A stretch of DNA of 42,272 nucleotides from a virus (Duplodnaviria > Heunggongvirae > Uroviricota > Caudoviricetes): IMG/VR virus record IMGVR_UViG_2529292726_000021; one strand, given 5' to 3'. The notes beneath the pieces were generated by a model. The model was not told the DNA's origin and made no database searches. It saw nothing but the letters and a program-made list of their open reading frames with translations. This document shows positions 32,689-42,272 of the stretch, in pieces. Each line of letters starts with the position of its first letter. Position 1 is the stretch's first letter. Position numbers and translations under genes: made by a program.

Positions 32689-33387
32689 ATGGGAATTAAA
32701 GCTGATATTCAGAGCTTATCTCCCTCTGCACTCATTGAGTTGTTCGTACTGGATATGTCGAACACAACTTCAGGGGGGAAGCTATTCTTCCACGCCGGAA
32801 CAAACGAACTGATGCAACCGGTCGTCTGGCAAGGAGTGACATACGAGCCGTGGCCAATCAAAGCATCAGGCTTTGACAAAACTGGCCAGGGAACGTTGCC
32901 ACGTCCAAAAATTCAGGTATCGAACTTTGCCGGAACCGTCTCTGCGGAAGTTCAGGCGAACGACGATCTTGTTGGCTGCCGCATTATTCGCAAGATGACG
33001 CTGGCTCGCTTCCTCGATGCCGTTAATTTTAAAGACGGTAATCCAACAGCAGATCCAAACCAACATTTCCCGGATGAAATGTGGTTTATCGAACAGAAAA
33101 CGCTCGAAACTCATCAGGTTGTCGAGTTTGAGTTGTCCAGTGTGTTCGATTTGATGGGGGTGCAACTGCCGTATCGTCAGATCATTAAAAACACCTGCCC
33201 GTGGAAATACCGAGGGCCAGAATGCGGCTATACCGGTCCATATTTCGACAAAAATAACCAGCAGACGTCTATGTCTGGTGCTGATTACTGCACAAAACGT
33301 TATGACGCCTGTAATGCGCGTCGGAATTATTTTGCCAACGGAGTGATCCATTTTGGCGGGTTTATTGGAGCTACGCGATATGGGTAA
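32689..33387 (+). CDS. minor tail protein, lambda gpL-like
   Basis: ARFLDAVNF, CPWKYRGPECGYTGP and FGGFIG segments match remembered lambda L; start moved to ATG 32689 (AAGGA upstream). Confidence 0.8.
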   Translation: MGIKADIQSLSPSALIELFVLDMSNTTSGGKLFFHAGTNELMQPVVWQGVTYEPWPIKASGFDKTGQGTLPRPKIQVSNFAGTVSAEVQANDDLVGCRIIRKMTLARFLDAVNFKDGNPTADPNQHFPDEMWFIEQKTLETHQVVEFELSSVFDLMGVQLPYRQIIKNTCPWKYRGPECGYTGPYFDKNNQQTSMSGADYCTKRYDACNARRNYFANGVIHFGGFIGATRYG

Positions 33388-34177
33388 TAAAGCAATCCCT
33401 GAGCTTGGCTCTGATGTTATGCAGCAAATCTATCTCTGCGCCATAAATCGCTACCCTAATGAAGCGTGTGGCTTTCTGGTGAGAACTAATGGCGACAAAT
33501 ATCGCTTTATGGAAGCGCGAAATGTTTCGGAGAACCCGCAGAACACTTTTGTAATGCACGTTGACGACATTATGGCGGCAGAGGATGCGGGTGATGTTAT
33601 CGCAATCTGGCATTCACATACTGATGAATCAGCAGAAGCATCTGATGCCGATCGTGCAGGCTGTGAAGCGACGGAAGTTCCGTGGATGATTCTGGCTATT
33701 CGCAAGAATGTTGAGGGAGATGCCCCTTTCCATTTTAGCGAGATGAATGTGATCACACCTGATGGTTTCGAAATGCCATACCTGGGTAGACCGTATGTAT
33801 TTGGCGTATTCGATTGCTGGATGTTGTGTCGGGACTATTTGAAGCGTGAGTTTAACGTCGAACTAAACCCGAACGCACACCTGCATATTCCATCGTGGTA
33901 CACCGGCGATAACGACATTCTCGATCAGAACTACCGTAACGAGGGATTGGTGCGTCTTGCGCCCGGAACAGAGCCTCAACGTGGGGACGTATTCTTTATC
34001 CAATACGGGAAAATGCCTGACCACTGCGCGGTTTATATCGGCGATGGAATGATTCTTCATCACCAGATCGACCGCCTAAGTTGTCGTGCTTATTACGGCG
34101 GAATGTATCAGAAACATACGACGCATCACTTGCGTCACAGAGACTTGCTCAAGGGAGATGAGACGTGTCTGAGTTAG
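33380..34177 (+). CDS. tail assembly protein, lambda gpK-like (JAMM/MPN plus NlpC/P60)
   Basis: Exact JAMM motif HSHTDESAEASDAD (H-x-H-x7-S-x2-D); downstream Cys and His consistent with NlpC/P60; ATG overlaps the end of the L-like gene. Confidence 0.8.
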   Translation: MGNKAIPELGSDVMQQIYLCAINRYPNEACGFLVRTNGDKYRFMEARNVSENPQNTFVMHVDDIMAAEDAGDVIAIWHSHTDESAEASDADRAGCEATEVPWMILAIRKNVEGDAPFHFSEMNVITPDGFEMPYLGRPYVFGVFDCWMLCRDYLKREFNVELNPNAHLHIPSWYTGDNDILDQNYRNEGLVRLAPGTEPQRGDVFFIQYGKMPDHCAVYIGDGMILHHQIDRLSCRAYYGGMYQKHTTHHLRHRDLLKGDETCLS

Positions 34178-34755: not shown

Positions 34756-34772
34756 TCAAGGATTTTTTGGAC

Positions 34773-37700
34773 ATGGAACAGTTCAAGAAGAAAAAATTAC
34801 CGCTTCTTATTGCCGGTGCTGGTGGCAAGAAAAGTAAAAGCTCCAGCCGTACCCCGGTTGAAGCTGATGATACTGTCAATTCTCGTGCTATGGCAGCCAT
34901 CCTCGACCTTCTTGGCGAGGGGGTTATCGGTGGCCTGGTAAATGGCGCAAAGTCGATCTTCATCGACGATTTACCGATCTTGAATGAAGATGGCTCTTCC
35001 AACTTCAGCGGTATTACATGGGATTTTCGTGACGGCTCACAAGACCAGACGCCAATGGCTGGTTTTGATTTTGTTGAAACGCCTAAGTCCGTAAATATTC
35101 AGCTTAAAAAAACACACGACGTTACGGTTTCAATCGATAACGATGAAGCTGATCGCGTTCGTGTCATCATGAAATTCCCCTCTTTACGTAGCGTTGATAA
35201 AAGCTCTGGCGATACAAATGGCACTACGGTGAAGTACAAATTCCAGATCGCCAACGCAGACGCAACATTTTCTGATGTAGTGGCAGAAGGTGAGAAAAGC
35301 GTTGATATCACGCTAACGGCAAAGAAAACCGGCGTGTATTACCGTAGCTATGAGCTGAAACTGCCTAAGCCTGGTCGTGCATACAAGGTTAGGGTGATTC
35401 GTCTTACAGATGATAATAGTAGCCAGTACCTCTACAACGACACATGGGTTGATTCCATCGGTGAGATTGTCGACACGCCAATGAACTACCCTAACTCTGC
35501 TCTTGTTGGCTTGAAGGTCAATTCAGAGCAGTTTGGTAGCACAATGCCTTCCCGTTCGTATTTGGTGCGCGGTATCAAAATCCGAGTACCGTCAAACTAC
35601 AACGAATACACCAATACTTATGTCGGCGTATGGGACGGTACTTTTAAGCTGTTGTCTTCTTCAAACCCTGCGTGGATTCTCTACGATTTGCTTACCAATA
35701 CTCGGTATGGTCTTGGGCAATTTGTGTCGGAATCCATGATTGACCTCGGCCAGCTCTACCAGATTGGTCGATATTGTGACGAAGAGGTCGATGATGGCTT
35801 TGGGGGTAAAGAGAAACGCTTTGCAATCAATACGCAGATCACCAGTCGACAAGACGCATACCGATTAATTCAGGATATTGCCGGTGCATTCCGCGGCATG
35901 GTGTTTTGGGCTGGTGGCATGGTTAACATCATGCAGGATAGCCCATCAGATCCGGTAATGATGTTTACCAACTCCAACGTCAAAGATGGACTGTTTACCT
36001 ATAAAGGTTCTGCGCGTAAAGATCGCCCATCCGTTGCGCTCGTAACCTACAACAACAAGGAGGACGGTTATAAGCAAAATATCGAGTACGTTGAAGATCA
36101 GGACGCAATGCGCCGTTATGGTGAGCGTAAAACAGAAGTCGTAGCATTTGGATGTACAAGCCGAGGCCAGGCTCACCGAGTTGGTTTGTGGCTTTTGTAT
36201 ACCGCCAGAATGGAGTCGGATGTAATTACATTTACTGCCGGCTTAGACGCCTCATTTCTGATGCCTGGTGAAACCGTTCTGATTCAGAACAAATATCGTG
36301 CAGGTAAACGTAACTCCGGTCGAATTGTGGAGTTTACCAAAAACAGCATCACTCTCGATGCGCCTGTGTCGTTAGCTAAAAGCGGCAGCTTTATTCGGAT
36401 ATTGAATCAGGAAGGCAAAATCGTTGAACGCGATGTTCTTGAAACTGGCGAAAACATAACAAAGGTTACGTTTTCAAAAGCCCTGTCGTCAGCGGAAACG
36501 CCTGTTTTGAACGGTGTCTGGACAATTACAGAACCAGATCTCGAACCTATGCGCGTTCGCATCGTTAACATCGCACAGGGGGAAACGCCGGGTAGCTTTG
36601 ACATCACCGCTGTTGAGAACAATCCGTCTAAATATGAGGCAATCGACAATGGTGCAACGCTGATCCCGCAGAATACGACGGTATTGGACCCAACTTACTC
36701 CAAGCCATCTAATCTGCAAATCACTGAAGGGACTTATCTCTCAAGCCCGGGCAACCTGTCAGTAAAACTGACTGCAACATGGGAAGGGAAATCTCCAGAG
36801 TATTGGATCAGTTGGCGACGTTCTGATGAAAACAATGTATCGAACTGGCAATCGGCGCGTGTAACCGAAGAGCAATACGAAATCGTTAATGTCGCGGAGA
36901 ATGGACGCTACGACTTCCAGCTGTATGCGGTTTCATTCAACGGTAAAAAAACAGAGATTATCAGTACTGTTTATCAGGTGTTGGGCACAATGACACCGCC
37001 TGATGCCCCAACGTCATTAACGGCCGTTGGAGACTATCGTAATGTGATACTGAATTGGGTTAATCCAGATTCGGTAGACCTTGATCACATTAATGTTTAC
37101 GCATCCCAGACCAACAATCTGGATACGGCGAAACTGATCGCAGAGTCTGCAAGCACCACCTTTACACATGCTGGTCTTGGGGATAGCGAAACGTGGTATT
37201 ACTGGGTTCGAGCATCGAACAAGCGAGGTATGTTAAGTCCTCCGAACTCAAACTTGGGTACAGAGGCGACAACTCGCGATGTACTGTCGTTCCTGACTGG
37301 CAAAATTACATCTTCCGAGCTTGGTCAGGCTCTGCTTGAGGACATCAACAGCAAAGTCTCTCAAGAAGCAGTTGACGAGTTAAATGAGCATATCAACCAG
37401 AGCGTCGAATCTTTAGAGGGGGCGGTAAACGACGTTAAGGAAGATATAGCTGAATTAGATAAGCAGTTCAGCGATAACCTCGCGGGTTTTGAAATAAAAT
37501 TCAACGAGCGTAGCGATGCTTTGGAGAACGCACAAACCGAGCTTAAAGGTGAGGTTTCGGCAACGATCGACAAGGTCAATGAAGCGTTTGAAAAAATTGA
37601 TGCTACTGATGCTGCAATTGTTGAAATCGAAAACACCGTATCTGAACACGATAAAGCTCTCGCTAATACAGTCGAGGCAATAAAGGCTGCAAGAGACGAA

Positions 37701-39497
37701 GCGGCGGCTCTTATTGCTAAGGAAAGCGAGGCTCGTGTTGAAGGTGATGCCGCAAACGCTAAACAACTGGAAGTGTTGCAGTCGACGGTAGAGGAAAGTT
37801 CCGCAGCCGTTGAAGAAATGAAAAAGACGGTTGCAGAGGTCGATCGTGCCAGTGCAGAACTGACTACGAACATTGAGGCGTTAGCTAAAACAAATATTGA
37901 CCTGGCTCTTCGTCAAGATGAAGACCAGCACAAGCAGATGGTCAATAACGCGAAGATCGCAACAACACAGAAAACCTTTGCTGATGATATGTCCGCAATG
38001 GCCACGAAGGTTGAGGAAATTCGCGTAGAAATTGGCGAAGACATTAAGGCCAGTATTCTGGAAGAGTCCACCGCTCGTGCCGATGGCGATGAAGCGTTGG
38101 CAAAGCGTGTCACTCAGCTGCAATCTAAGTTTGAAGGAGATATCAGCGCGGCGATTAGTACAGAGCAGGAGGCTCGTACATCTGCCGATGAAGCTCTGAC
38201 GACACAAATCACTCAGCTTGAGTCGAAAGTAAGCAACGATATCGTCGCAGCTATTAAGGAAGAGCAAGAAGCCCGAGCAACGGAAGATTCGGCTCTGGCA
38301 AGCCAGATCACCCAACTTCAGGCAAAGGTTGATGATGATATTTCTGCTGCAATACGTAGTGAGCAGGAGGCCCGAGCAAGCGGGGACTCTGCGTTAGCCA
38401 AACAAATAAACCAGCTTCAGTCAAAGGTTGACGGTGATATATCCGCTGCCATCACTCAGGAGCAGGAGGCCAGAGCAAGTGCTGACCAGGCGCTCTCACG
38501 AGAAATTAACAGCCTGCGAGCACAAACCGGAACTGATATTGCCGCAGCGGTTGCTGTAGAGACAAAAGCAAGGACTGATGCCGATAGTGCATTGTCTACC
38601 CAGATTACGTCTCTTACAGCAAAAGCTAATGATCTCAAGGCGTCTCTTGCCAGAGAAACAACGGCTCGTGCAGATGGTGATACCGCTTTAACAAAAGAGG
38701 TTTCAAGTTTAAAAGCACAGACAGCGAAAGATATTAGTGCGGCCGTTGCAGTTGAAACGCAGGCTCGAACTGATGCTGACTCGGCGTTGTCGTCTCAGAT
38801 CACCAAGCTGACCTCTCAATACAAAGAGGATATTAAAGCGGCTGTAGCAACCGAAACGAAAACGCGTACAGAGCAAGATGCTGCATTGGCGACTCAAATC
38901 ACAAACTTAGAGTCTCAAACGGCAGCCAACATTTCCGCGGCGGTCACAACTGAAACGAAAGCGAGAACGCAGGCAGATAATGCTCTGAGTGGGCGAATCG
39001 ATACTCTGAAAGCAGAGGTGAATGGAAATACCGCGACAATTCAACAGCAGGCAACAGCTATTGCTGATACCAACAAAAAAGTGTCAACCGCGTGGACGTT
39101 GAAAATGGAGACTTCAACGAGCGGAGGGCAGAAGTATGTTGCCGGTATTGCGCTTGGTATTGACACCACTGGGCTATCTCAGTTTTTGGTTCAGGCGGAC
39201 AGGTTTGGTTTGGTCAACTCTGTTAACGGGAAGATCACAACGCCATTTGTTATCGAAAACAGTATCGCCTATATGAATGGAGCGTATATCAAGGATGGCA
39301 CAATCACCAATGCAAAAGTAGGCGATCTGCAATCTACCAATTTTGTTAGCGGTAGATCTGGATGGCGATTCGGCAAAAATGGAACGCTTGAGATCAACGG
39401 TAATAGCGGCGGCAATGGGCGATTGGTTATAAATGGTCAGCGGATTGACGTTTATGACGATAACAACGTCTTACGAGTAAGAATTGGCCGTCTGTGA
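34773..39497 (+). CDS. central tail fibre / host specificity protein, lambda gpJ-like with coiled-coil repeat insertion
   Basis: N-terminal and central regions match remembered lambda J (e.g. FGCTSRGQAHRVGLWLL); C-terminus has the J-type segment KYVAGIALGIDTTGLSQFLV; about ten tandem 31-aa repeats in between. Confidence 0.85.
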   Translation: MEQFKKKKLPLLIAGAGGKKSKSSSRTPVEADDTVNSRAMAAILDLLGEGVIGGLVNGAKSIFIDDLPILNEDGSSNFSGITWDFRDGSQDQTPMAGFDFVETPKSVNIQLKKTHDVTVSIDNDEADRVRVIMKFPSLRSVDKSSGDTNGTTVKYKFQIANADATFSDVVAEGEKSVDITLTAKKTGVYYRSYELKLPKPGRAYKVRVIRLTDDNSSQYLYNDTWVDSIGEIVDTPMNYPNSALVGLKVNSEQFGSTMPSRSYLVRGIKIRVPSNYNEYTNTYVGVWDGTFKLLSSSNPAWILYDLLTNTRYGLGQFVSESMIDLGQLYQIGRYCDEEVDDGFGGKEKRFAINTQITSRQDAYRLIQDIAGAFRGMVFWAGGMVNIMQDSPSDPVMMFTNSNVKDGLFTYKGSARKDRPSVALVTYNNKEDGYKQNIEYVEDQDAMRRYGERKTEVVAFGCTSRGQAHRVGLWLLYTARMESDVITFTAGLDASFLMPGETVLIQNKYRAGKRNSGRIVEFTKNSITLDAPVSLAKSGSFIRILNQEGKIVERDVLETGENITKVTFSKALSSAETPVLNGVWTITEPDLEPMRVRIVNIAQGETPGSFDITAVENNPSKYEAIDNGATLIPQNTTVLDPTYSKPSNLQITEGTYLSSPGNLSVKLTATWEGKSPEYWISWRRSDENNVSNWQSARVTEEQYEIVNVAENGRYDFQLYAVSFNGKKTEIISTVYQVLGTMTPPDAPTSLTAVGDYRNVILNWVNPDSVDLDHINVYASQTNNLDTAKLIAESASTTFTHAGLGDSETWYYWVRASNKRGMLSPPNSNLGTEATTRDVLSFLTGKITSSELGQALLEDINSKVSQEAVDELNEHINQSVESLEGAVNDVKEDIAELDKQFSDNLAGFEIKFNERSDALENAQTELKGEVSATIDKVNEAFEKIDATDAAIVEIENTVSEHDKALANTVEAIKAARDEAAALIAKESEARVEGDAANAKQLEVLQSTVEESSAAVEEMKKTVAEVDRASAELTTNIEALAKTNIDLALRQDEDQHKQMVNNAKIATTQKTFADDMSAMATKVEEIRVEIGEDIKASILEESTARADGDEALAKRVTQLQSKFEGDISAAISTEQEARTSADEALTTQITQLESKVSNDIVAAIKEEQEARATEDSALASQITQLQAKVDDDISAAIRSEQEARASGDSALAKQINQLQSKVDGDISAAITQEQEARASADQALSREINSLRAQTGTDIAAAVAVETKARTDADSALSTQITSLTAKANDLKASLARETTARADGDTALTKEVSSLKAQTAKDISAAVAVETQARTDADSALSSQITKLTSQYKEDIKAAVATETKTRTEQDAALATQITNLESQTAANISAAVTTETKARTQADNALSGRIDTLKAEVNGNTATIQQQATAIADTNKKVSTAWTLKMETSTSGGQKYVAGIALGIDTTGLSQFLVQADRFGLVNSVNGKITTPFVIENSIAYMNGAYIKDGTITNAKVGDLQSTNFVSGRSGWRFGKNGTLEINGNSGGNGRLVINGQRIDVYDDNNVLRVRIGRL
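38067..39050 (+). repeat. tandem ~93-bp coding repeats inside the J-like gene
   Basis: Repeated peptide pattern AR(A/T)x(A/G)DxAL(A/S)xQI(T/N)QLQ(S/A)KVxxDI(S/A)AAIxxEQE, about ten copies. Confidence 0.7.
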
Positions 39498-39590: not shown

Positions 39591-41950
39591 ATGTGGTACA
39601 GGGAAGGTACTATCACATTTACACAGGGTAGCAATACTCTGGTTGGGGCAGGGACAGCCTGGAACGTAACAGCTAATGGTGTGTTGCCGGGGATGATCGT
39701 CATTGGCCCCGACAATAAGCTGTATGAGATCAAGCGCGTAACCAGTGATACGAACATTGTTCTCTCAGAACCTTATACCGGCGAAACTCAGTCTGAAGTT
39801 CCGTGCCGAATCATTACGACCTATGAAGGCGACTTAACACAGTTTAGCGCGCGCTTTACTGCGCTAATGTCGCGTATGTCGGCTGATTCCAAGTCCATAC
39901 GCAGTTGGTTGACTGCGCTGGATGAGGTGACAATCGAGCGTGAAGACGGTACAGAAGTGACCGTTAAGCCGCTAATGCAGATCGTCAACGAGCACAACGA
40001 AAACGTTGAGTGGTATAAAAATAACACTGACGCGATTGATGCTGCTGGCGACAAAGCTCGTGAGGCGGCGGCCAGTGCTGCCGCAGCAGCCAAAAGCGCC
40101 AATGCCGCTGGAGAAAAAGCCTCTCAAGCGTCTCAAAGTGCATCCGCTGCGGCATCCTCACAAAGTGCCGCAAGTGCGAGTGCAACTGCTGCGAAAAAAT
40201 CTGAAACGAATGCTGCAGCGTCACAAAAATCTGCAGCCACTTCTGCATCCACCGCGACCACGAAGGCGTCAGAAGCTGCCACCTCAGCCCGGGATGCGGC
40301 GGCCTCAAAAGAGGCAGCGAAATCATCAGAAACGAGCGCAGCCTCGAGCGCCAGTAATGCCGCTTCCTCGGCAACGGCGGCAGGAAATTCCGCGAAGGCG
40401 GCAAAAACGTCCGAGACGAACGCCAGGTCTTCTGAAACGGCAGCGGGACAGAGCGCCTCGGCTGCGGCAGGCTCAAAAACAGCGGCTGCGTCGTCTGCCA
40501 GTGCCGCGTCAACAAGTGCCGGGCAGGCCTCAGCCAGTGCCACCGCCGCCGGAAAATCGGCAGAAAGTGCCGCATCGTCTGCTTCAACTGCCACAACGAA
40601 GGCTGGCCAAGCCACTGAACAGGCCAGCGCAGCAGCGAGGTCTGCTTCCGCAGCGAAGACATCCGAAACGAACGCGAAAGCGTCGGAAACCCGTGCAGAA
40701 TCCTCAAAAACGGCAGCCGCATCGTCCGCCAGTTCGGCGGCGTCATCGGCATCATCGGCGTCTGCTTCAAAAGATGAGGCGACCAGACAGGCGTCAGCAG
40801 CGAAGGGCAGCGCCACGACGGCATCCACGAAAGCAACAGAGGCGGCAGGCAGTGCGACGGCAGCATCTCAGAGCAAAACTGCTGCTGAATCCGCTGCGAC
40901 CCGTGCGGAAGCTGCTGCTGATCGTGCTGAAGAGATTGCCGGTGCAGTTGCGATGGAAGACGCAAGCCTTACAACTAAAGGTGTTGTGAAACTTAGCAGT
41001 GCTGTCGACAGCACCAGTGAATCGCTGGCCGCAACGCCAAAAGCAGTTAAAGCAGCCAATGACAATGCGAATAGCAGGGTGCCATCTAACCGAAAAGTTA
41101 ACGGTAAAGCACTGACTGCGGATATCAAATTAACGCCGAAAGATATTGGTACTTTAAATTCAGTAACGATGTCTTTCTCTGGCGGGGCAGGGTGGTTCAA
41201 ACTGGCTACGGTTACCATGCCACAAGCGAGTTCCATCGTTTACATCGCATTGATTGGTGGCGCTGGTTACAACGTCGGCTCCCCACATCAGGCAGGCATT
41301 TCAGAACTGGTTCTACGAGCAGGCAATGGAAACCCCAAAGGGATTACAGGTGCTTTGTGGAAGCGTACAGCTGTCGGATTAACGAATTTCGCCTGGATCA
41401 ACACATCCGGCGATACATATGATATTTACGTTGAGATTGGCAATTATGCGACTCGTGTAAATATCCATTGGGATTGTACTGCAAATGCGACAGTTTCTAT
41501 TTATACATCGCCAACATATTCAGCGAGTAAGCCTTCCAGCGTTACCGATGGTGTTGTTTATACGATGTATAGCACACATCAGAAACCGACGCCGTTAGAT
41601 ATTGGAGCACTGCCAACAACCGGAGGAACAGTTTCAGGTCCGTTGTCTGTTACAGGTGGATTAACTGGTTCATTGAATGGTAATGCAAGTACAGCCACGA
41701 AATTGCAGACGGCAAGATCTATCGGTGGAGTTGTTTTCGACGGTTCTGCAAATATTAACCTTCCAGGTGTAAACACTACGGGTAATCAGAACACCACTGG
41801 TAATGCTGCAACTGCTACAAAACTTCAGACGGCAAGAACTATCGGCGGCGTGAGCTTTGATGGTACTGCGAATATTAATTTGCCAGGTGTTAATACGACT
41901 GGTAATCAGAACACAACGGGCAACGCGGCTACTGCTACGAAGTTGCAGAC
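39591..41950 (+). pseudogene. side tail fibre (Stf-like) gene truncated at the 3' end by IS2
   Basis: ATG with AAGGAG upstream; long Ala/Ser-rich repeat region with recurring KTSETNA units; TKLQTAR(S/T)IGGV...NTTGNQNTTGNAATA repeats; frame runs into the IS2 end at 41951. Confidence 0.75.
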
Positions 41951-42272
41951 TGGATTTGCCCCTATATTTCCAGACATCTGTTATCACTTAACCCATTACA
42001 AGCCCGCTGCCGCAGATATTCCCGTGGCGAGCGATAACCCAGCGCACTATGCGGATGCCATTCGTTATAATGCTCGAACGCCTCTGCAAGGTTCTTTGCT
42101 GCCGTTAACCCGTCTGGTTTGGGCATGATACTGATGTAGTCACGCTTTATCGTTTTCACGAAGCTCTCTGCTATTCCGTTACTCTCCGGACTCCGCACCG
42201 CCGTGTTCTTCGGTTCAAGTCCCAACATCCGGGCGAACTGGCGTGTTTCATTAGCCCGGTAGCATGAACCAT
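41951..42272 (-). mobile_element. IS2 (IS3 family), partial copy continuing beyond window
   Basis: Terminal sequence TGGATTTGCCCCTATATTTCCAGACATCTG matches remembered IS2 end; encodes the C-terminus of the IS2 orfB transposase. Confidence 0.85.
41962..42272 (-). CDS. insD: IS2 transposase orfB (InsD), C-terminal part
   Basis: Translation ...[35 protein letters not shown]...[31 protein letters not shown] matches remembered IS2 InsD C-terminus. Confidence 0.85.

Follow-up and report, generated by a model that had tools for sequence, protein, structure and literature searches.

Ten tandem 33-residue units in the predicted helical shaft of a J-like central tail-fibre protein of an SSU5-like phage-plasmid

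Here, we describe the central tail-fibre gene in a 42,272-nt stretch of viral DNA (IMG/VR record IMGVR_UViG_2529292726_000021; Caudoviricetes), hereafter the window, which on sequence grounds is part of an SSU5-like phage-plasmid. The gene, at 34767..39497 on the plus strand, is a single open reading frame (ORF) for a J-like central tail-fibre (tip attachment) protein of 1576 aa when read from a TTG start. The ATG at 34773, two codons downstream of the TTG, is the start used in RefSeq relatives and gives 1574 aa. Within it, motif anchoring and autocorrelation delimit ten tandem 33-aa (99-bp) units (38061..39047, plus strand; aa 1099-1427), which follow ~260 aa of largely non-repetitive predicted helix and immediately precede the Phage_Tail_Tip domain (aa 1424-1558). 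The initial annotation had placed about ten repeats before the C-terminal domain at 38067-39050; the number agrees, and the array starts within 6 nt and ends within 3 nt of these positions. The period given there, 31 aa or 93 bp, has to be corrected to 33 aa or 99 bp, as identities at lag 31 (0.13) and lag 93 (0.30) are near background.

With the register anchored on the motif AR...D.AL, the units start at 38061, 38160, 38259, 38358, 38457, 38556, 38652, 38751, 38850 and 38949. Nine have 33 aa and unit 6 has 32 aa, giving 329 residues in total. Protein autocorrelation is dominated by a single lag, that of 33 residues; its harmonics appear at 66 and 99, and there is nothing at 31. Amino acid identity at lag 33 is 0.48 compared to 0.099 ± 0.017 in 5000 shuffles (z = 22), and nucleotide identity at lag 99 is 0.53 compared to 0.257 in shuffles (z = 18). 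The unit consensus is TEQEARADADSALAKQITQLQSKVDGDISAAIA, in which E2, R6, D10, A12, L13 and L20 are identical in all ten units and A5, I/V17, D27, I28, A30 and A31 are near-invariant. When 94 diverse homologues are combined into a consensus, the 33-residue pattern is retained.

At the DNA level, the units have diverged far from each other. Their pairwise identity averages 51% and reaches at most 70%, the longest common exact word is 12 nt, and identity per codon position is 0.56, 0.66 and 0.36, the third position being nearly randomised. Tandem Repeats Finder, run on the window, reported no repeat at 38061-39047. The array is visible just at the protein level or through lag statistics, and, because of the 51% mean unit identity and the missing Tandem Repeats Finder call, we conclude that it is old at the DNA level. 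Units 1-4 belong to one sub-family and units 5-9 to another, and a two-unit duplication is suggested by the resemblance of units 5-6 to units 7-8. Duplication of a five-unit block, taking five units to ten, was considered and rejected, as units k and k+5 share only 36-48% identity. An isolated degenerate copy of the unit lies further upstream (37722..37796, plus strand; aa 986-1010), where it was found as a domain match to a hidden Markov model (HMM) of the unit.

The protein as a whole has the lambda-J layout of hub domains, fibronectin type III (FNIII) domains, helical segment and beta-prism tip. Pfam detects FNIII-A_GpJ at aa 103-237 (1e-29), Phage-tail_3 at aa 359-522 (2e-35) and a last fn3 domain at aa 746-825 (37002..37241, plus strand), which is the exit point of the fibre from the tail-tip cone. 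The C-terminal beta domain (39048..39497, plus strand) corresponds to Phage_Tail_Tip, PF09327, the central straight fibre prism (Pfam, aa 1424-1558; predicted strands from aa 1413). No Pfam domain matches aa 830-1424. In PHROGs, phrog_31, ‘central tail fiber J’, matches over aa 2-1395, while the NCBIfam model lambda_TipJ scores 533 bits against a cut-off of 1950, far under threshold. Features of lambda-type TipJ are present at both ends: an N-terminal hub with the FNIII-A domain of gpJ (HMMER to gpJ 3-836, E 3e-127), and a C-terminal order of FNIII, helical shaft and beta-prism that matches the TipJ class by Pfam, structure prediction and Foldseek to the lambda open-state fibre. Existing annotation names it ‘phage tail tip fiber protein’ and, by itself, the window protein is an ordinary tail-tip fibre protein.

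Structure prediction places the array in a long helix. In two AlphaFold2 (AF2) monomer models, one built on an alignment of 94 homologues and the other on one of 47, helix covers aa 836-1408, interrupted only near aa 1065 and at aa 1252-1256, and strands follow from aa 1413 to the end; the predicted local distance difference test (pLDDT) score across the repeats is mainly 70-85. This helix includes the largely non-repetitive proximal shaft (37272..38060, plus strand; aa 836-1098; AF2 helices at 836-1064 and from 1068 onward). Proline is absent from the 583 residues of aa 845-1427. Altogether, the helical segment has ~570 residues compared to roughly 180 in F-type pyocins. The first break falls in a low-confidence stretch (37944..38024, plus strand; aa 1060-1086; pLDDT <50, break at aa 1065-1067) that is a possible kink. 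Its sequence is kept in relatives with 1, 5, 9 or 10 units (L001, L002, L005, L008, L009, L011), and it might, by inference only, be a hinge or docking site. The second break lies in unit 5, at ‘QTGTD’ (38520..38534, plus strand; aa 1252-1256), in both models. Both breaks may be artefacts of the chain folding back in a monomer model, and monomer AF2 is unable to tell a coiled coil from a prism. With the model as query, Foldseek matches were confined to the tip domain, the matches being the lambda gpJ open-state fibre and the SU10 tip fibre.

The hydrophobic periodicity of the array differs from that of the helix before it. In the repeats, hydrophobicity peaks at 3.65 residues (33 residues per 9 turns, hendecad-like), off the 3.5 residues of a canonical heptad coiled coil; in the proximal shaft (aa 845-1098) the peak is at 3.56 residues, heptad-like. 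With 33 residues per 9 turns, or 3.67 per turn, the rod would therefore be nearly straight. A second peak of equal strength in the repeats, at 2.07 residues, is that of a strand-like alternation, which the proximal shaft has only weakly. Of the coiled-coil repeats named in the initial annotation, the helix is borne out by prediction, and the coiled coil is inferred from this prediction together with homology.

This homology includes that to the F-type pyocins, a link to a fold-switching shaft that was unforeseen in the initial annotation. In the F7 pyocin, a 163-residue coiled coil, equivalent in length to about five of the units described here, becomes a triangular beta-prism on contact with the cell, as seen by cryo-electron microscopy (cryo-EM); through this change of fold the tip is opened and the tape-measure protein ejected, and mutations that block the change abolish killing (PMC12874032). 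He et al. describe a strand motif, SxSxxMxxLxS, whose orientation alternates by strand and whose acidic M is paired with an Arg four residues off (PMC12874032). All ten window units have this motif in forward orientation from unit position 12 (A12-x-[A/T/S]14-xx-[I/V]17-xx-L20-x-[S/A]22) and in reversed orientation from position 30 (A30-x-[I/V]32-xx-E2-xx-A5-x-[A/T]7), and the invariant R6 is at a distance of four residues from E2 on one side and from D10 on the other. Motif matches in the array number 26 compared to 5.4 ± 2.2 (maximum 13) in 2000 shuffles. Thus, the sequence features of the fold-switch class are present, i.e., homology to the pyocin coiled coil and prism ‘seed’ and an alternating motif with Arg ±4 pairing. 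Motif matches also occur ~32 aa apart in the proximal shaft, at aa 949/981/1013 and 964/996.

The closest relatives of the window protein in the PDB are the F2-pyocin fibre (25vf and related entries), T1 gp33 (9l9p) and lambda gpJ (8iyk, 8xcg, 8xci). All three align to the hub (E 1e-127 to 1e-154), and the alignments to lambda gpJ and the F2-pyocin fibre reach ~aa 860. The F-pyocin central fibre has the domain order of the window protein, with hub, FNIII, trimeric alpha-helical shaft and beta-prism tip; in PA0641, a trimeric coiled coil has been resolved over residues 907-1084 (10.64898/2026.02.24.707460; PMC13455828). Window aa 1276-1548, i.e., units 6-10 and the tip, can be aligned to residues 927-1193 of the F2-pyocin fibre (E 8e-24), and the last F2-pyocin unit, nearly the same in sequence, matches the unit HMM at 1e-10. 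The SxSxxMxxLxS motif and the Arg/acidic pairing are common to both proteins. They differ in that the F-pyocin shaft has ~163-180 residues of which the last unit alone is well conserved, whereas the window protein has ten clear units and ~260 further helical residues. Moreover, F-pyocins have no capsid, and the fold switch is demonstrated in the F7 pyocin but would extend to the window protein by analogy.

T1 gp33 contains near-identical copies of the unit at a spacing of exactly 33 residues, and after them comes the tip domain seen in the window, with the ending ‘...RVQIGRL’. It has about three to four units compared to ten in the window, and it aligns to units 6-10 and the tip (E 3e-31). Its C-terminus (821-1172) is unresolved in the cryo-EM map and was described from an AlphaFold3 (AF3) model (PMC11945409). 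In lambda gpJ, hub and FNIII domains align over window aa 22-861 (E 3e-127), and residues 840-971 align by HMMER to the window tip domain, stopping there. Lambda residue 836 corresponds to window aa 861 and lambda residue 840 to window aa ~1420, so that ~560 residues are absent from lambda. This insertion falls at the site of the short ‘alpha-helical shaft’ of lambda, a three-helix bundle under the FNIII domains that is rearranged on LamB binding (PMC11101478). In total length, the window protein exceeds lambda gpJ (1132 aa) by 444 aa, close to the ~440 aa initially estimated. The Ig-like domain with which lambda gpJ binds LamB at its C-terminus has no counterpart in the window protein, which ends ~18 residues past the Pfam tip domain. 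The neighbouring genes L, K and I are common to lambda and the window: encoded 5' of J are a Phage_tail_L protein, a K-type protein with JAB + NlpC/P60 and a 196-aa ORF that is labelled tail assembly protein or protein I in relatives. The K-like protein (33353-34177) joins JAB/MPN and NlpC/P60 peptidase domains, as expected of lambda gpK homologues; it is ordinary and bears out the lambda-type tail-tip module.

The tail protein of Salmonella phage SSU5, SSU5_020, is of the same protein and element family, with proximal shaft and tip conserved, but has 5 units in 1385 aa rather than 10. Megablast detected the window J gene in 228 of 5426 complete Escherichia coli genomes, invariably on plasmids (~100-120 kb among the matches listed), and in the phages Cyrano, CMS-2020a and PhiR41_1; remoter copies occur in Klebsiella phages and SSU5. 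To count units, we applied an HMM built on the ten window units to the J genes of 11 annotated records, 6 genome loci and 77 IMG/VR loci, which comprise 64 distinct C-terminal sequences; repeat-plus-tip homologues of ≤833 aa, many of them partial, were used for alignments only. The terminal array has 5 units in 17 of the 64 sequences and 10 units in 15, the two modes. Six units occur in eight sequences, 1 and 9 units in five each, 4 and 7 units in three each, 2 units in two, and 3, 8, 12 and 13 units in one each, with no unit in the remaining two. Unit-bearing relatives span 1-13 units, and the differences are of whole units. Among them, pSTEC388_1 has 1 unit in a J protein of 1229 aa, the Kluyvera elements have 5 units like SSU5, a Yersinia pestis contig (L016) has 6, PhiR41_1 and NZ_CP081792.1 have 9, and the CMS-2020a record CP054387.1 has 10 like the window. 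Besides the 5-unit SSU5 itself, SSU5-like members have 1, 4, 6, 7, 8, 9, 12 or 13 units, and some have a quite different giant stalk.

Two independent exact one-unit deletions, each between otherwise near-identical genes, were identified. In NZ_CP081792.1, units 4 and 5 are fused, with a microhomology of 3 nt, GAC, at the junction. The other deletion separates PhiR41_1 from CMS-2020a; it is a single in-register 33-aa gap, in a register other than that of the NZ_CP081792.1 deletion. The proposal of a length-variable segment in the initial annotation is borne out by these deletions and by the range of unit numbers, and the region is predicted to be non-globular. The companion proposal, that 93-bp DNA repeats make the segment recombination-prone, finds no support in the window, where the repeats are of 99 bp and only ~51% identical. 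Between CMS-2020a and the window, with J genes 82% identical in DNA, the ten units pair 1:1 and, therefore, there is no homogenisation or concerted evolution. Using a 90-nt probe over the deletion junction, we found nine units in three of 167 E. coli records and ten in the other 164; the three, similar plasmids of ~94.8 kb, are probably one lineage. Because only 3 of 167 records differ in copy number, the array is not a hypervariable locus. By contrast, a Xenorhabdus hominickii DSM 17903 contig (L017 8886-9647) has 13 units, several of them nearly identical, and here Tandem Repeats Finder does report a 99-bp repeat (7.7 copies, 89% matches); amplification in that lineage would, therefore, be recent, unlike that of the old window array.

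Two further kinds of change were seen among the relatives. NZ_CP062854.1, an E. coli O9:H10 plasmid (L004 481-11469), encodes a giant J protein of 3662 aa, and that of Klebsiella phage vB_KpnS_p4727 (L010) has >2868 aa and is cut by the locus edge. Both have hub and tip domains as in the window, but in place of the 33-aa array there are many coiled-coil segments in alternation with non-helical domains of ~150-200 aa, in which Pfam recognises just an ILEI-like stretch. In addition, some 4-6-unit relatives from Yersinia pestis and IMG/VR (L015, L016, L064, L067-L076, L078-L079) gain 80-140 aa after the tip and have 231-289 aa after the array compared to ~150. Such an extension points to an additional receptor-binding module at the C-terminus, which is absent from the window protein.

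Altogether, these findings support a model in which the ten units are most probably part of a long trimeric helical shaft whose length is modular in whole units. Within the trimeric central tail fibre of this siphovirus phage-plasmid, they would make up two-thirds of a very long alpha-helical shaft, on its distal side, with the three chains arranged, as homology and geometry suggest, in a parallel coiled coil. From standard helix geometry of about 0.15 nm per residue, each unit would add ~4.9 nm, the array would measure ~49 nm and the whole shaft ~85 nm, holding the receptor-binding tip far off the tail cone. Trimeric alpha-helical shafts lie between FNIII domains and prism in lambda gpJ and the F-pyocin fibre (PMC11101478, PMC13455828, 10.64898/2026.02.24.707460); the window repeats, predicted to be helical, likewise have the last FNIII domain on one side and the beta-prism tip on the other, and would extend the central fibre, as had been anticipated.

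A further step, that the shaft is metastable and switches its fold, is plausible by analogy but tentative. We suggest that, on receptor binding, each unit could refold to one beta-hairpin stacked on the pre-formed C-terminal prism, as in the F7 pyocin; refolding unit by unit is proposed because each unit has a forward and a reversed motif and the invariant Arg/acidic pairing. With such refolding, the fibre would lose tens of nanometres in length and the tail tip would be drawn to the membrane and opened, and the number of units would set reach and stroke together. More doubtful is the extension of this idea in which each unit is a discrete helix-to-hairpin module, so that the number of units would step reach, stroke and stored energy, and the fibre would be a spring-loaded penetration device that SSU5-like phage-plasmids tune to how thick the host surface layers are, through gain or loss of whole units.

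Several points weigh against the shaft model together with its fold switch. First, the AF2 runs were of monomers, so that nothing can be read from their helix breaks and fold-backs, and the coiled coil is putative. Second, for 30% of related fibres AF3 gives a beta-prism and no coiled coil (He et al., PMC12874032) and, therefore, the resting state of the window repeats could already be beta. Third, lambda and T5 are without the extensive switch (He et al., PMC12874032), which has been shown experimentally only in a pyocin with a 163-residue shaft, compared to the 330-570 residues that would be concerned in the window. Fourth, upstream F2-pyocin units match the unit HMM weakly, and homology is clear for the distal units alone. 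Finally, the residue classes used in the motif count of 26 follow the published description, so that this count is not an independent discovery.

The chief alternative, which we consider somewhat less likely, is a static spacer, i.e., a stable coiled-coil rod that serves only to set the reach of the tip, for instance through O-antigen or capsule, and bends aside as in lambda and T5. The helix prediction and the absence of proline suit such a rod, as do the whole-unit length variation across Escherichia, Klebsiella, Kluyvera, Yersinia and Xenorhabdus lineages, the lack of an extensive switch in lambda and T5, and the homologous C-terminus of T1 gp33, described only as a flexible 370-Angstrom extension (PMC11945409). 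However, a static rod leaves unexplained why small residues that would be exposed on the helix but buried in the prism are kept in every unit, and why the repeats have a strong period-2 signal that the ordinary coiled coil upstream lacks. Moreover, the distal units are homologous to the segment that refolds in the F7 pyocin (PMC12874032).

Less probable is that the shaft serves mainly to attach the side tail fibres encoded downstream. In F-pyocins, three side-fibre trimers dock at the kink of the alpha-helical shaft (PMC13455828; 10.64898/2026.02.24.707460). In the window, a side tail-fibre ORF of 845 aa (39591..42128, plus strand), with matches to PHROG tail-fibre families and a Mu/P2-type tail-fibre motif, lies directly 3' of J, and the two predicted helix breaks, at aa 1060-1086 and 1252-1256, could offer docking sites. 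However, the side-fibre protein had no significant match to the F-pyocin side-fibre chains in the PDB, and the sole PDB match of its N-terminus was at chance level (E = 0.086) and to a distal tail protein, so that docking draws no support from sequence. A single site also needs no ten units, and one-unit relatives exist. Docking is not exclusive of a long modular shaft and would be compatible with it.

We regard as quite improbable that the repeats are a beta-prism already at rest, i.e., an elongated version of the lambda central straight fibre that is never a coiled coil. The period-2 hydrophobic signal and the strand-type motifs in each unit would fit a prism, as would the AF3 prisms mentioned above and the finding that AF2-multimer with a deep alignment gives only the prism for the F7 pyocin (PMC12874032). 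By contrast, AF2 gives helix throughout with both the 94- and the 47-sequence alignment, and the homologous F-pyocin segments are coiled coil in pre-ejection particles in three independent cryo-EM studies. Finally, a hypervariable, contingency-type DNA repeat, in which 99-bp units recombine or slip so often that fibre length is heterogeneous in the population, is very improbable and for this lineage largely refuted: the two one-unit deletions, the young homogeneous Xenorhabdus array and the wide copy-number differences between lineages speak for it, but the window units are too diverged, down to their third codon positions, pair 1:1 with those of CMS-2020a and are kept at ten in nearly all close E. 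coli records.

The side tail-fibre gene has repeats of its own and appears to be truncated by an IS2 insertion. Its 3' end loses tail-fibre character and enters the end of an IS2 copy, inside which the window stops; a fragment of IS2 TnpB, the C-terminal 88 aa (41962-42228, minus strand), overlaps this 3' end. Just before the junction, at 41690-41950, lies a 120-bp tandem repeat (2.2 copies, 76% matches) that encodes repeated ‘TATKLQTAR.IGGV.FDG.ANINLPGVNTTGNQNTTGNAA’ segments. Further upstream, ~300 residues of the side-fibre protein (aa ~150-450; window 40000-40900) are extremely rich in Ala, Ser and Thr, and this stretch gives rise to spurious ORFs of some length, both on the opposite strand, e.g., 39985-40965 (minus), and in other frames, e.g., 40006-40989 (plus).

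The protein family, the helical shaft and the idea of a fold switch were already known from work of 2024-2026, and the window protein is a known kind of structure, expanded and modular. A targeted full-text search, within a limited search of the literature, found no description of the construction from 33-residue units or of the series from 1 to 13, and the main text of He et al. (PMC12874032) has no mention of ‘repeat’, ‘tandem’, ‘hendecad’, ‘heptad’ or ‘SSU5’. What provides the force with which non-contractile phage tails breach the envelope is an open question, for which the 2026 work on the F7 pyocin proposes a switch in which a coiled coil becomes a beta-prism in the central fibre (PMC12874032). 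The SSU5-like phage-plasmids are a natural allelic series in this respect, with 1, 2, 4, 5, 6, 7, 8, 9, 10, 12 and 13 clean units in otherwise similar proteins, and some variants from the same species differ by exactly one unit. This series allows a test of whether fibre length, stroke or infectivity scales with the number of units. It moves the fold-switch question from a bacteriocin into real phages, and its main use would be as a natural test set; the host-range machinery of SSU5-like phage-plasmids is, in addition, of practical interest.

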